DNA from: Microbotryum violaceum
Lineage: Eukaryota
DNA length: 64,000 nucleotides
Direction of reading: 5' to 3'
Assembly: GCA_001244265.2 (NCBI GenBank)
Contig: CDLV01000004.1
Span: forward strand, 930,001-994,000
Shown here: piece by piece, positions 3,316 to 52,009 of the stretch
Numbering within the stretch: the stretch's first letter is position 1
Layout of the letters: each line of letters opens with the position of its first letter
Made by a program: the position numbers and the translations under genes
The notes under the pieces: model-generated
Databases searched by the model: none
Seen by the model: only the letters and a program-made list of their open reading frames with translations
Told to the model about the DNA's origin: nothing

Positions 3316-3633
3316 TGTAAGGCCCGTGCGCCTGGGCCTTATGAGAAGAGAGCGCGCGCCTGGACACTCTTAGTCTCCCCTCAGCGACTAACACGAGTGT
3401 CCAGGTGAGCGTATGGTGGATCAAAAGTCATAGTCATTGTAGCGACTAACACGAGTGTCCAGTGTTAATTCCACATACTTTGGTCCTGTGATACTCTTGT
3501 CGTCGCTCTCTGGTGTACACTCCTACGGGGTGTATTACACTTTTTTTTTCACATCGGTCAAAGACGCACCGCGCCCAAGCTAGCGAGCGACACCACTCTC
3601 ACACTCGCCTCAGTCCGAGCCTACCTCAATGAC

Positions 3634-5415
3634 ATGGACAACCTTTTTACGCAATACAAAGTCACGGGCATGCATTTCAAGGTCATGTTCATCACACACC
3701 ATATCGAACAGGAGTGGCTCAAGAACTGGTGCGGGTCGGCGACGGAGGATCGCACGTGGGACGAGTTCAAGGTTGCATTCCTACGTAAGGCTCTACCTTT
3801 GGACTTTGCGTACGCCACGGAGAAGGCCATTCGACACAGCAAACAACGTCTAACGGATTACACCTCGTGGGCTTCGGGACTTCGGGCCTCACAGCTCCAG
3901 CTCGAGCAGGCCGCGTTCAGTGACACCAGCTTCATCAAGGTCCTACTGTTCAACATGGATCCTCAACTCAGCGTCATCCTACGTCAAGACGACCTCTTGC
4001 TGAACACCGGTATGCACACAGACGACTTGGATTACGTTGTCGCTTCAAAGACCGCACTCCCCAAGCCCAAGACGATATTGTACGAGGCCTTTGAGCGACT
4101 GGCACGATCGAAATGGAACATGATCACGGCACTTCGCGGTGTAGCAGCTCCCCGAACGCACAACTCGACGATGGCGACGAGGACTAGCTCGTACCGACCC
4201 CCTGCGACCACGTCGACGGGCGGCCGACGTTTACCGGCTAAACTGACGGACGCGATGAAGGATTACCTCTCGCTGAAGGAGGGCTGCTTCAGCTGCCAAC
4301 AAATACACACGGATCATCGATCAAAGGACTGTACCGCGGAATGGCAGAAGGCGCCGGATGTTCCGGAGGGCTGGACCGAGTTCGAGAAAAGGAAGGCGAG
4401 CGCTGCGAAGAACGATACGCTCCACCAAATGGCCGAACAGTCGGAGGACGACTTATCAACGGACGAAGAAAACGAGTACGCCCCTCAGTTCATCTCGACT
4501 ATCCCCATCACCCTACACAACGGCAAGGGTTCACAGACGTTGCACGCACTTGCTGACTCCGGGGCCTCTTCCTCCTTCATCGCAGATAAGGTGGTTGAGA
4601 AACTGGGGTTAGCTGTGCATCGTCTCCCTGTCCCTACAATGGTCAAAATTGCAATTAAAGGTCAAAAGCGCGCGTTTCATGTTACCTCATACGTAAAAAT
4701 CCCGATCGCGCTCGAGAACGGAACTTGGGAAGCGGGGGATACGATTCTGAAGGTGGCCAAGCTGCAGGAACCCCTGGAGGTGGTGCTGGGTTTCAACTTT
4801 CTTGCGAAGCATAAGTTCAACATCGACTTTGCAAGACACAAGATCCTGGTTCCACACCCAAGCATGCCCAACGTGATGATTGACCTCCTCGCGCCGGTCT
4901 TCGGACCTCAGCCACAGCGCGCCGTGCCAAGGAGCCCCAAACGAAGTGATAAAGCTCGGATCAACTGGGGCGCGGTGATTGCCTATATCGACGGAGTACA
5001 GCAGAAAGAATCGGAGTTGGCGGAGTTGAGGGCACGAGAAGCGAGGCTGAGGGTGGAATTTGCGGACAGATTTCCCGGCGACATACCCCCGGTATCGATG
5101 TACGAGTCCCCAGTCCGACATCGCATCGAGCTGAAGCCGGGAGCAAAGAAGCCGAAGTTGAAGGGTTACCGGGCACCACACCGTTACCGCGCGCCGTGGA
5201 AACGCTTGATCGACCAGCACGTGACCGCCGGCCGCCTCCGCAAATCGTCATCGGAGTGCGCCTCCCCGGCGTTTGTCATTCCGAAGAAGGGCATGGACAA
5301 GGACCCGTCCATCCAGCCACGAATGGTCTGCGACTATCGAGTGCTCAATGAAGGAACCGTTCGCGACCGAGATTCTGTCGATCTGTTCGAAGGCATGGTT
5401 TTGGGGGAAGATTGA
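3634..5415 (+). CDS. Gypsy-1 gag - zinc knuckle - aspartic protease - start of RT
   Basis: [16 protein letters not shown] knuckle; [12 protein letters not shown] protease motif; [10 protein letters not shown]...[12 protein letters not shown] motifs. The frame shifts near 5370, where the YPLP motif is missing (small deletion). Confidence 0.85.
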
Positions 5416-48300: not shown

Positions 48301-51300
48301 TGCGAAGAAGCGATTCTTCTCCAGGCCCCGGCCCAATCGCTCCAAGCAAAACGCGAACGCCAAGCCGCCCGCTCAAGCTCGCCTCGCTGTTGCCTCGGAC
48401 GACCCCGGCGAGATCTCGGAGACGGCCCCCAGCGTCTCCTTCGCGGCTACTTCTTTCCTCTCGGTCACGTCGGACTCGCCTAGCCTCCTCCTCGACTCTG
48501 CCGCCAGTCACCACATGGTCAACGACTCAACTGCCTTCGTCGAGCTGCACAACACTCCTCGTGTGCAGATTGGCGGCGTAGGGGGGGGGGGGGGCTTTCT
48601 TCGCACGGCACGGGTGTCATCGAGCTCGTCGCTTCAACAGGCAATCGCATTCGCCTGTCCAACGTCTTCTTCGTTCCGGACTGTCCCGCGAATCTCATCT
48701 CCGTATTTGCGCTCATCAACGACGGCATCACGGCTTCATTCACCGAAGACGGACGAGTCTCGCTGGACAGGGGGGGTAAGCGCGTCTGCACGGGTTCGGC
48801 CAAATCCGACCGACTCTTCCACTTGGATGCCCATCTATGTACGCACACCGCTCTCATCGCCGCTCGTACCCCCAAGGTCTCACTGCTGACCCTTCACCGC
48901 CGCCTTGGTCACTGCTCTCTTCCCACCCTCAGGAAGCTGGCCAAAAGCGATCAGGTGAAGGGTATTGAGTGGACTTCTAGCGACGATGATTGGAATAATT
49001 TCAAATGTGATGCATGCATGGCTTCCAAGGCGCACAAGCTACCTTTCCCTATGTCCGAGTCTCACGCTGCACTTCCCCTCGGGCTGGTTCACTCGGACCT
49101 ACTCATGTTTCCTGAGCCCTCCGTGAGCGGCCGACGCTACCTGATCACCTTCATCGACGACTTCTCGCGCAAAGCTTGGGCCTTCCCACTCCTCCGCAAA
49201 AGCGACGCACTGGCTGCCTTTCAGTGCTGGAAGGCCGAAATCGAGAACGCCTCCGGGGCCAAGTTCAAAACACTGCGTTCCAACAACGGTGGCGAGTACA
49301 CTGCTTTCAACAGGTTTTGCGCCGAGCAAGGGATTCGTCGCGACAAGTCGGTGCCGTACACGCCCGAACAGAACGGGCGCGCCGAGCGACTTAATCGATC
49401 GATCGTAGAGGGCGTCTTGGCTCTGCTCCACGACTCCGGTCTCCCGGCCCACCTGTGGGAAGAAGCGACGCAGTACTATCTCGACTGCAAGAACCTCACG
49501 CCACACGCAGGGATCGACGGCGGTGTACCAGATGCGATCTGGCACGGCATTCCCCAAGACCTCTCACGACTGTGCACGTTCGGCTGCCGCGCCTGGGCCA
49601 CCGTCCCACAGCATGAACGCACCAAACTAGAACCAAAGGGGATCCCACTGATCTTTGTGGGTTATGACCAACATGCCAAAGCGTATCGATTATACGATCC
49701 TGACACCCAGCGTCTTCGCATCAGTCGCAACGTCACGTTCGTGGAGACCGAGTTCCCTGCCGCCGCGCGACAAGTCTGCGAGCCCGAACCGCCCTCACTC
49801 GCCCCTACGACCGTGCTGCACCCCGTCCTGGCGCCAGCTTCGGTACTAGCCGTTCCTGTCACACCTCCAACTTCTACGCCGCCCACAACGCCTCACCCGA
49901 AGCCCCACTCGACATGCTCCCTTCTCGCGACGCCGACCCGGCCCATTGGCACCAAGCGATGCGATCTCCACACGCCGCGGAGTGGCAAACCGAAGCCATC
50001 GACGAGTTTACGTCGCTGCTGAACCAGTACAAGGTCTACGTCATTCTCGACCAAGCCGCCCTGCCCGACGGTGCCAAGCTGCTACGCTCCCACTTCGTCT
50101 TTCGCACCAAGCGTGATCAGTTCGGCAACGTCAAATCGCGGAAGGTTCGTCTCGTCGCTGACGGCAGCACAACGCCCGGGCCTCGATTTTCAGGAGCGTT
50201 ATTCCCCCGTTGTTCGCTTTACATCGATCCGAGCCCTCGTCGCGATCGCCGTCTTGCGCGGCTACAAGATCAAACAAGCTGACGTCAACAAGGCCTATCT
50301 GCACGGCAAGCTCGACCAGCCTCTACATGCAACCACCGCAAGGCATCGACTTGCCGGGTAAGATTCTCAAGCTCGAACGATCCATCTACGGGCTCAAGCA
50401 GGCTGGACGCATCTGGAACGACGAGATCGACTCGACCCTCCGTTCTGTCGGCTACAAGCCCACGGTCTCGGATCTCTGCGTCTACACGAAGCGACACGGC
50501 AACGATTGGCACTACATCGCGCTCTATGTCGACGACTTGCTCCTCATTGGCCCCTCAGACGACGAGATCGAACGAGTTCTGTCCACACTCGAGGACATGT
50601 ACGGAATCAAGCGACTTGGCGACGCGGAATACGTCCTTGGCATTGAACTCAAACGTAGCAATGACGGCTCCATTACCCTCTCTCAGGAGCGCTACCTACA
50701 GGACGTGCTCGAACGTTTTGACCTCGCTCTTGCCAAGCCGGCCAGCACACCGATGCAGAAGAATCTCCTCCTCGAGCTCGATCAATCCACACCTTCTGAC
50801 CAGGAGCGAACTCGCTATCTTCAGGCAATCGGCTCCCTGATGTACGCCGCGCTCGGCACTCTTCCCGATCTTGCCTACGCTGTCAGCTATCTCGCACGAT
50901 TTGCCAAGGAGCCCGGACCGACGCACTGGACTGCGATCAAACACGTTCTGCGCTACATTCAAGGAACAGTCTTGTACAGTCTTCGTTACACGCCTACTTC
51001 CGGTCCGCTGTACGGCTACTCCGACTCAAATTGGGGTGCATGCGTTCGGACATCCAAGTCGACGATGGGCTATGCATATTTTCTGGCTGGTGCAACGATC
51101 TCCTGGTGCTCGAAACGGTCGTCCCGCGTCGCTGATTCTACCACCGACGCTGAGTACATTGCCCTCTCCCAGTCTTCCAAAGAGGCTATTCACCTCCAGC
51201 AGCTCTTGGAGGAACTCGGCATTCCGAACTCGGGACCCACCTTGATCTACGGCGACAATCAAGGCGCGAATTCATTGACACGCAACCCGACATCGTTTTC

Positions 51301-52009
51301 AGGCACTCGTCACGTTCGCATCCGGGAGCACTTTGTGCGGGAGATGGTCAAAAAGGGTGAGATCAAGGTTGAATACATTGCCACAGCCGACATGGTCTCC
51401 GACATCCTCACCAAGGCCCTTGACCCCAAGCTCTTTGTACGGCACCGCGAAAGTCTAGGCCTCCGAATGCCTGGAGCCTGACAGCGAGGGGGGGTGTCAT
51501 CGTGTACACTACATTGCAGGGGCGCTCTCAACTCCAGCATACGGAGATTGGGGGATGGGAACTCGGGCGCGCGGACCTCTTTAGATTCTGACTTAGATTA
51601 CCCGAGGCAGCGACTAGCGCGGCTCTCCCTCTTTTCCCTTAACGTTCCCTATCCTCTTCTACTCGGCATCTTCGTTTGCTCACTGCGCTGCTCCTCATAG
51701 GTTAGTGTAATACATTTCGAACGTTCCCTATCCTCTTCTACTCGGCATCTTCGTTTGCTCACTGCGCTGCTCCTCATATGACGCGTGGCAGTCGTCGCCA
51801 CCGCGCCGCTGCCGGCGTGAAATGACGACGAGCCGCCGCGGAAACGTGCAAGCGAGCAACCGGCCCGACCCACCGGCTCCTCCCCGACCGTTGCCCGTCG
51901 TCGTAGCACTCACACTTGACTCTCCCTCGCCCAAAGGGTGGGAAGCGCGAGAACGTCTTCGCTTGGAGGCACCCGTGCTCGTCGTCGTCGTGTTGGCTGC
52001 CGAACTCAT
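45363..52009 (-). CDS. PCT1: Choline-phosphate cytidylyltransferase; first intron occupied by Copia-3; possibly non-functional
   Basis: [66 protein letters not shown]. Putative exon 1 (MSSAAN...GESS) lies at 52009-51914, beyond the Copia. Confidence 0.82.
47133..51778 (+). mobile_element. Ty1/Copia LTR retrotransposon (Copia-3), frameshifted
   Basis: 5' LTR 47133-47339 (207 bp), 3' LTR 51495-51778 (284 bp); TG...TA termini; [32 protein letters not shown] protease, integrase, YVDD RT, YSDSNW RNase H. Confidence 0.96.

Follow-up and report, generated by a model that had tools for sequence, protein, structure and literature searches.

Candidate self-regenerating introns in the long terminal repeats of three retrotransposon families in a Microbotryum violaceum contig

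A retroelement is normally unable to retain an intron once it has been spliced out of the RNA being copied, and a 64-kb stretch of the Microbotryum violaceum genome (positions 930,001 to 994,000 of contig CDLV01000004.1; hereafter the window) raises the question of whether some LTR retrotransposons can rebuild one. The initial annotation held that in three unrelated families of this window, Gypsy-1, Copia-1 and Copia-3, a segment of the LTR (D1) is followed by a filler that begins with GT and then by an exact copy of D1 (D2), and this layout was confirmed in all three when the coordinates were read and the repeats recomputed. The order U3, D1, GT-filler, D2 and remainder is found in both LTRs of Gypsy-1 and in the 5' LTR of Copia-1; U3, D1, GT-filler and D2 also follow one another in the 3' LTR of Copia-3 and in a diverged Copia-3-like solo LTR. 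The elements have features of LTR retrotransposons: paired LTRs, PPT and PBS sequences, pol domains, and intact 5-bp target duplications (TGTGC for Gypsy-1, TGATC for Copia-1 and TGACG for Copia-3). Pfam domains are RVP_2, RVT_1, RNase H, integrase and chromo in Gypsy-1, and RVT_2 and rve in Copia-1 and Copia-3, which are Ty1/Copia elements. The PBS of the Copia elements resembles the complement of the anticodon arm of the initiator tRNA; that of Gypsy-1 was not recognised in the sequence. A metagenome scan for relatives returned one pol fragment, 29% identical and without LTRs, and two viral-contig scans returned nothing. The window also encodes a fungal Ish1-type protein, and an Rfam search of it matched no family.

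Gypsy-1 (3316-8197, plus strand) is a full Ty3/Gypsy chromovirus with the long form in both LTRs (3316-3539 and 7974-8197), which are 98% identical over 224 nt. In the 5' LTR, the 22-nt D1 (3383-3404, plus strand), a putative exon 1 or R region, is followed by a candidate intron of 58 nt (3405-3462, plus strand), made of a filler at 3405-3440 that starts GTGAGC and of D2 at 3441-3462. The 3' LTR has the same cassette at 8063-8120, with its copies of D at 8041-8062 and 8099-8120. A hairpin is predicted at 3352-3412 (plus strand): an arm in U3 pairs with a stretch that covers D1 and the initial 8 nt of the filler, among them the donor. The 81-nt fold reaches -37.8 kcal/mol in the 5' LTR (z -4.87, 0 of 200 shuffles as good) and -33.0 kcal/mol in the 3' LTR (z -2.49, 3 of 200 shuffles as good); by this modelling, the hairpin is strong, depends on U3 and buries D1 and the donor. 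Contigs of four sequencing runs (X18, X19, X20 and X1) were aligned to positions 3300-23299, and one from an independent run spans the long form at 7970-8197 without a gap. Of 52 joints and 68 indels in these alignments, the 15 joints and 12 indels listed include none at the LTR sites (3404/3463 and 19251/19329 for the joints), which speaks neither for nor against splicing.

Copia-1 (19109-23685, plus strand) has a long 5' LTR of 243 bp (19109-19351) and a short 3' LTR of 166 bp (23520-23685, plus strand). Its 48-nt D1 (19204-19251, plus strand) precedes a candidate intron of 77 nt (19252-19328, plus strand), consisting of a 29-nt filler (19252-19280, starting GTGTGT) and D2 (19281-19328, ending TTCAG). 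The 3' LTR, with a single D at 23615-23662, lacks exactly the filler and one D (77 nt) and is otherwise 100% identical to the 5' LTR. Branch candidates are weak matches only (CTCAT about 30 nt upstream), the acceptor is TCAG, and the corresponding fold has a z of -2.59 (3 of 200 shuffles as good). Beyond 19251, where an X20 contig has a loose end, that contig reads on as the short form; as this form is also present as DNA, the contig is uninformative about splicing. Copia-2 (32754-37214, minus strand), 77% identical to Copia-1, has the short form at both ends, and a Copia-2-like LTR fragment with an insertion in U3 (9108-9372, minus strand) is likewise short. The cassette is therefore not indispensable, four of the five LTRs of this family being short.

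Copia-3 (47133-51778, plus strand) has the opposite arrangement, with a short 5' LTR at 47133-47339, the only Copia-3 5' LTR in the window, and a long 3' LTR at 51495-51778. In the former, D (47281-47339) is followed by the PBS from 47340. In the latter, the 59-nt D1 (51641-51699, plus strand) is followed by a G and then by the body of the candidate intron (51701-51778, plus strand), which comprises a filler starting GTTAGT and reaching 51719 and a D2 at 51720-51778 that is identical to D1 (59/59). The LTR stops at the last base of this D2, and the next base is T, so that the 3' copy has no AG; the acceptor AG would be complete only with the G of the PBS, that is, in the context of a 5' LTR. 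The AG of this candidate intron is hypothetical, since the window contains no long Copia-3 5' LTR. A branch candidate, CTCAC, lies about 20 nt upstream of the intron end, and the corresponding fold shows no significant structure (z +1.9). The long-form solo LTR at 17350-17566 (minus strand), 83% identical to Copia-3, retains the first 16 nt of the filler; its D2 is followed by C, so the AG is absent from both long copies of this type.

Precise versions without the cassette, as claimed by the initial annotation, thus exist for Copia-1/2 and Copia-3, and none was seen for Gypsy-1. Long and short forms sometimes occur within one element, as in Copia-1 and Copia-3. Close exact repeats of 48-59 nt are prone to deletion, and the difference between the forms might have arisen purely after integration, by replication slippage, single-strand annealing or gene conversion, or might be an assembly error. 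Such an origin is very improbable: the long form stands in both LTRs of Gypsy-1, in the independent contig and in the 83%-identical solo copy, all three elements retain their target duplications, and the origin of the cassette and of its signals would be left unexplained.

Apart from the cassettes, the 64-kb window has no close, non-tandem direct repeats of at least 18 nt. Tandem Repeats Finder reported no array at any of the three sites, three-copy forms of D were not seen, and the spacer is unique, with no second copy, so that the cassettes are neither head-to-tail tandem repeats nor U3 enhancer duplications. The fillers have a G+C content of 0.33-0.42, compared with 0.55 for the window, and have no source within it beyond chance matches of up to 13 nt. 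In a check for self-priming, the 40 nt following each LTR showed no complementarity of 7 nt or more to that LTR. Judged from its sequence, the cassette is a real, non-random, intron-like insert in the LTR.

The donors (CAG/GTGAGC in Gypsy-1, CAG/GTGTGT in Copia-1 and TAG/GTTAGT in Copia-3) all have G at position +5, when compared with the fungal donor consensus and with three host introns recognised from CT..AC joints, which start GTAAGT, GTGCGT and GTAAGT. The claim that the lengths are host-like was borne out, with 58, 77 and 79 nt in the cassettes and 63, 79 and 136 nt in the host introns. In simulations, with 200,000 draws made for each family, GT..AG in any position arose with frequencies of 0.080, 0.163 and 0.213 (product 0.003), and GT..AG exactly at the boundary of D1 and filler, as found in Gypsy-1 and Copia-1, with frequencies of 0.0034 and 0.0036. 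When +5G, YAG and a YTNAY branch motif 10-45 nt upstream were also required, a pattern to which all three families broadly conform, with a weak branch match in Copia-1 and a hypothetical AG in Copia-3, the frequencies fell to 0.0033, 0.0070 and 0.0093; the segments thus resemble introns far more than random placement would give, with a joint chance of about 2e-7, a figure to be read in the light of criteria that were chosen post hoc on data already seen.

These statistics bear on the possibility that the segment is not spliced at all. The cassette could be a second copy of R together with a captured filler, produced by an aberrant template switch during reverse transcription, with coincidental GT and AG, and could be kept or lost by repeat-mediated switching or serve another role, for instance in promoter activity, polyadenylation or the efficiency of strand transfer. 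Direct repeats are often deleted during reverse transcription, a GT..AG pair placed somewhere is no rarity among long repeats (0.08-0.21 each), poly(A) signals could lie in the AT-rich fillers, discordant LTRs in two of the four full elements (Copia-1 long/short, Copia-3 short/long) fit frequent slippage, and an element with a short 5' and a long 3' LTR, such as Copia-3, would homogenise D2 without splicing. This origin is nevertheless considered unlikely, given the low joint chance of the full splice pattern, the perfect branch motif in D of Gypsy-1 (GACTAAC, 13 nt before the CAG of a terminal CCAG), and an A-B-A structure with a unique B, unlike a simple tandem duplication.

The position of D suggests what the repeat may represent. 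The initial annotation placed a pyrimidine tract before D1, and 14, 16 and 16 of the 16 preceding bases in Gypsy-1, Copia-1 and Copia-3, respectively, are pyrimidines; among 16-nt stretches of the window, frequencies are 0.0092 for at least 14 pyrimidines and 0.0006 for 16. In a basidiomycete yeast, according to the accessible part of the study, CT-rich tracts pile up just upstream of sites of transcription initiation (PMC10506223). The end of the tract before D1 resembles a transcription start, and, because D1 always begins there, D looks like a complete first exon, from start-like tract to donor, equal to the R region. The copies of D also appear to change together: relative to Copia-3, D1 and D2 of the solo LTR share two lineage-specific changes, beside five and about six private ones. 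From these alignments, concerted evolution of D1 and D2 is judged to have persisted over an LTR divergence of 17%, with the filler passed on by descent.

The best single explanation, as yet unproven and assigned a probability of about 0.4, is a self-regenerating LTR leader intron. The long LTR would contain a spliceosomal-type leader intron directly after the first exon, D1, which would begin at the transcription start, where the pyrimidine tract ends, reach to the donor and constitute the R region. The intron would end in D2, whose 22-59 nt duplicate the exon exactly and would also supply branch site and acceptor. A transcript of a long 5' LTR could be spliced to D-U5-PBS, and the 3'-terminal copy of the cassette in the RNA would stay unspliced: transcribed U3 may fold onto D1 and the donor in Gypsy-1 (with a weaker fold in Copia-1), and in Copia-3 the acceptor AG would exist only where the LTR abuts the PBS. 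Minus-strand strong-stop DNA from a spliced or short 5' end could then anneal to D2, which would rebuild D1-filler-D2 and overwrite D2 with the sequence of D1; annealing to D1 instead would yield a short LTR. In this scheme we only infer that splicing takes place, where transcription starts and polyadenylation occurs, and which acceptor strand transfer uses. That two superfamilies independently evolved such an intron, with D2 as strong-stop acceptor and the 3' copy shielded by a hairpin or by an acceptor at the LTR-PBS junction, is more tentative and somewhat doubtful.

The interpretation offered by the initial annotation therefore stands in part: intron-likeness, an exon-1-like D, concerted change of D1 and D2 and reasons for an unspliced 3' copy speak for it, and discordant LTRs and a weakened premise of intron loss speak against it. 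A self-regenerating intron predicts identical LTRs within an element, and the two discordant elements count against it, as do the short-only Copia-2, the absence of a significant Copia-3 fold, and the broken reading frames of Copia-1 (in-frame stops and one frameshift) and Copia-3 (frameshifted); all breaks in the Copia coding regions are of these kinds, and none is an intron-like gap. As D1 and D2 are identical, a preference for D2, whether as poly(A) site or in annealing, lacks an explanation outside Gypsy-1.

Gypsy-1 itself weakens the assumption that reverse transcription necessarily costs an element its intron. Contigs of X18, X19 and X1 look RNA-like by our own reading, the runs having no RNA designation on record, because their depth ranges over about four orders of magnitude and they have CT..AC joints at host introns. 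In contigs of these three runs a 110-nt GT..AG segment inside Gypsy-1, with a stop directly after the junction, is skipped. Gypsy-1 thus apparently keeps another, internal intron with no means of regenerating it, for which packaging of unspliced RNA could suffice, and retroviruses likewise keep introns in this way. The cassette could accordingly be an ordinary, alternatively spliced leader intron of the LTR, the spliced form serving as mRNA and the unspliced RNA being packaged and copied, with D2 a relic of its origin that has no role in strand transfer and with short LTRs derived from occasional reverse transcription of spliced RNA or from repeat deletion. The splice-signal statistics fit this equally well, and the internal intron implies that such retention appears to work in this host. 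It leaves unexplained why the intron ends, in all three families, in a perfect duplicate of the entire exon 1 and why D1 and D2 remain identical despite divergence of the family, and it is regarded as quite improbable.

If the self-regenerating intron is real, its reconstruction during the first strand transfer would resolve the conflict over intron loss in a new way and give genomic RNA the benefits of splicing without loss of the intron. It would represent an adaptation of transposons to hosts that favour spliced messages or police unspliced ones, would provide a simple signature for genome scans (an exon from TSS to donor, repeated at the end of the intron), and would point to compact designs by which retroelement vectors could keep an intron. 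Should the segment prove not to be spliced, a recurrent, concertedly evolving duplication of R with sharp borders has still been defined.

On the question of novelty raised by the initial annotation, a literature check found no natural, regenerating intron within an LTR, subscription journals for the most part and supplements lying outside its scope. In HTLV-1 and foamy viruses the major splice donor lies in R and an unused donor is present in the 3' LTR copy; the acceptor is far downstream, outside the LTR, and the intron is kept by packaging of unspliced RNA rather than rebuilt. Retroviral LTRs are also known for repeat deletion, tandem enhancer repeats, length polymorphism and template switching, their repeats being head-to-tail copies without a unique spacer; here, in contrast, a unique spacer with GT at its start separates the copies, and the limits of the repeat are precisely the pyrimidine tract and AG. 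Split-intron retroviral vectors carry a donor in the 3' LTR that is copied to the 5' LTR, which creates a functional intron only in the provirus (PMC3182074), but, as far as the accessible part of that source describes them, they are engineered and one-way, with an acceptor outside the LTR and no duplicated R as a landing pad. The precedent named by the initial annotation, Penelope, is described in the accessible part of PMC2377424: a 75-bp intron, 46 bp downstream of the transcription start and inside a repeated promoter region, is spliced in most transcripts and kept through transposition, and its deletion abolishes reporter expression. That part of the account describes no copy of the exon within the intron, whereas the present cassettes have D2. 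Penelope-like elements form a separate class, with a telomerase-like RT, a GIY-YIG endonuclease and no LTR-type strand transfers, and the domains found here (RVT_1, rve and chromo, or RVT_2 and rve) place the present elements outside it. By analogy, the cassette may work like the intron of Penelope without membership of that class.

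The window has a G+C content of 55%, and four complete LTR retrotransposons lie in it beside several fragments. The chromovirus Gypsy-1 (3316-8197) has two long open frames, one with the protease and one with RT, RNase H, integrase and chromodomain. Copia-1 occupies 19109-23685, Copia-2, which is 77% identical to it, the minus strand of 32754-37214, and Copia-3 47133-51778. Target duplications of 5 bp flank Gypsy-1 (TGTGC), Copia-1 (TGATC) and Copia-3 (TGACG), the three elements whose flanks were compared, and polypurine tracts precede the 3' LTR of each of these. In-frame stops and frameshifts break the coding regions of Copia-1 and Copia-3, so these copies are non-autonomous. 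In sequencing runs X1 and X18, contigs follow the host flank (18634-19110) as far as the first two LTR bases of Copia-1, beyond which they diverge into sequence outside the compared stretch, a weak hint of an empty site at 19110 and of a recent, polymorphic insertion. The primer-binding sites of both Copia families (19352-19364 and 47340-47352) can presumably base-pair with the initiator tRNA at its anticodon arm, as in half-tRNA priming, and possess a C in Copia-1 and Copia-2 but a T in Copia-3.

Elsewhere in the window, a fragment of another Gypsy-type pol (63443-63770, minus strand) at the window edge is 69% identical to Gypsy-1 at the DNA level. Two inverted repeats of 300 bp (11268-11554 and 15551-15850; 89% identical, partly 23-nt tandem units) flank about 4.6 kb, where the RNA-like depth of X18 and X19 is very high; they may be the terminal inverted repeats of a DNA transposon. 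At 16607-16675, about six copies of the 10-nt unit CGACTGACGT form a tandem array amid extreme RNA-like depth. An open frame of 674 codons (27119-29143, plus strand) with a weak Ulp1/Peptidase_C48 domain (E 3e-5) may belong to a further mobile element.

In the long form of the LTR, the order is U3, D1, a filler beginning with GT, D2, and the rest. D2 is an exact copy of D1 in Gypsy-1 (22/22), Copia-1 (48/48) and Copia-3 (59/59), and all coordinates and strings reported for these cassettes in the initial annotation were correct when the sequence was read directly and the repeats were recomputed. The long form is present in both LTRs of Gypsy-1, the 5' LTR of Copia-1, the 3' LTR of Copia-3, and a diverged solo LTR (17350-17566, minus strand). 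Precise short versions, which the initial annotation had also noted, were found as the 3' LTR of Copia-1, the 5' LTR of Copia-3, both LTRs of Copia-2 and a fragment at 9108-9372, but there is no short Gypsy-1 LTR within the 64-kb window. In Copia-3, D2 is the final 59 nt of the LTR, and the base behind it is T, or C in the solo LTR; an acceptor AG is thus completed only by the G of the primer-binding site at its junction with the LTR. No long 5' LTR of this family, which would display that acceptor, is present in the window. D1 of the long Copia-3 LTR is directly followed by the same 5 nt that open the Copia-3 primer-binding site.

Apart from the cassettes, the 64 kb have no close non-tandem direct repeats of 18 nt or longer, and a tandem-repeat search found no array at their sites; the cassettes are not tandem arrays. 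Cassettes of the observed sizes were simulated from window sequence with any placement along the repeat allowed, because a repeat-flanked indel can shift along its repeat. GT..AG at any placement occurred with frequencies of 8%, 16% and 21% (product 0.003). When the draws also had to show +5G, a pyrimidine ahead of AG and, 10-45 nt upstream, a YTNAY motif, the pass rates were 0.33%, 0.70% and 0.93% (product about 2e-7), yet all three real cassettes pass, Gypsy-1 and Copia-1 exactly at the D1/filler boundary (0.34-0.36% in simulation). The cassettes thus resemble introns more than chance would give; since the criteria were picked after inspection of the data, the real significance of the splice pattern is lower, but it is still strong. 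D1 does lie right behind a pyrimidine tract, as proposed: the preceding 16 nt hold 14, 16 and 16 pyrimidines, compared with frequencies in the window of 0.9% for at least 14 and 0.06% for 16, whereas the 16 nt before D2 hold only 8, 12 and 8. The end of the CT tract and the AG|GT border D sharply on both sides. An origin in purely genomic events or artefact is very unlikely.

As reported for one basidiomycete yeast at least, CT-rich tracts pile up immediately upstream of the sites where transcription initiates (PMC10506223). On this basis, the best reading of D is a complete putative first exon that reaches from the start site to the donor; for an LTR element, this would be R or its beginning.

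The solo LTR, with 83% identity to the LTR of Copia-3, still has the filler's first 16 nt, indicating that the cassette is older than their split. Its D1 and D2 share two differences from Copia-3, with five and about six private changes, and D1 and D2 of Copia-3 are identical; thus the two copies were homogenised after the split, as would be expected if D2 were periodically rewritten from D1. This concerted evolution supports strand transfer onto D2 more than splicing, and an element that, like Copia-3, is short at the 5' LTR and long at the 3' LTR would homogenise D1 and D2 without splicing. A duplication of R that is never spliced and has another function or none would accommodate this; set against the splice pattern, it is somewhat unlikely.

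Self-regeneration would require the 3' copy to escape splicing. In the predicted hairpin of Gypsy-1, D1 and 8 nt at the start of the filler pair with a U3 segment beginning at 3352, so that the donor is buried (5' LTR, -37.8 kcal/mol, z -4.87, 0/200 shuffles equally good; 3' LTR, -33.0 kcal/mol, z -2.49). With transcription starting at D1, it would form only at the RNA 3' end, where U3 is transcribed, and would block the donor and hide D1 while leaving D2 open to strong-stop DNA. A weaker analogue is predicted in Copia-1, where the CT tract and the start of D1 pair with the donor (z -2.59, 3/200 shuffles). Copia-3 has no comparable fold (z +1.9); there, the acceptor is instead missing in the 3' context.

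Two identical LTRs are expected from canonical reverse transcription, and likewise from the variant proposed initially. Discordant LTR pairs in two of the four full elements, in both directions, therefore call for an extra event, such as slippage during plus-strand or displacement synthesis, or later conversion. The short form also propagates: Copia-2 is short at both ends, and four of the five LTRs of the Copia-1/2 clade have this form.

Among the 15 of 52 contig joints and 12 of 68 indels listed for 3300-23299, none falls at an LTR cassette, which speaks neither for nor against splicing there. RNA-like contigs from three runs (X18, X19, X1) do skip a 110-nt GT..AG segment within Gypsy-1 (4476-4585, plus strand; GTACGC .. 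GCTGAC .. GCAG), with only 20 nt on the shorter side. The joined flanks reach a stop one codon past the junction, just upstream of the protease DSG motif, making this a candidate Gag-only spliced message of a fungal Ty3/Gypsy element; such messages are known for copia-type elements. If real, the skip means that the host splices Gypsy-1 RNA, which would favour intron readings generally, and also that Gypsy-1 keeps an intron merely by copying unspliced RNA. The premise that an LTR intron would otherwise be lost is thus not compelling. An ordinary leader intron could persist in the same way through unspliced genomic RNA, with D2 as a relic; with D1 and D2 homogenised, we regard this as unlikely.

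That the segment is a real intron under one reading or another is moderately probable. The self-regenerating intron stands in part, favoured by the non-chance splice pattern and by homogenisation and weakened by discordant LTRs and the doubtful premise of loss; we assign it a probability of roughly 0.40.

Some retroviruses have a splice donor inside R, and repeat deletion occurs in reverse transcription. In the literature searched, which included few subscription journals and no supplements, no natural intron is described that lies inside an LTR and carries a copy of an exon, and the cassette is provisionally regarded as apparently new. The nearest natural case is Penelope, whose repeated promoter region contains an intron that is kept despite being spliced; this intron is reported to be 75 bp long, 46 bp past the start site, and needed for expression (PMC2377424). 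Penelope-like elements are a different class, to which the Gypsy and Copia elements here do not belong. Split-intron retroviral vectors, as described in one account, are an engineered counterpart that assembles its intron through LTR copying (PMC3182074).
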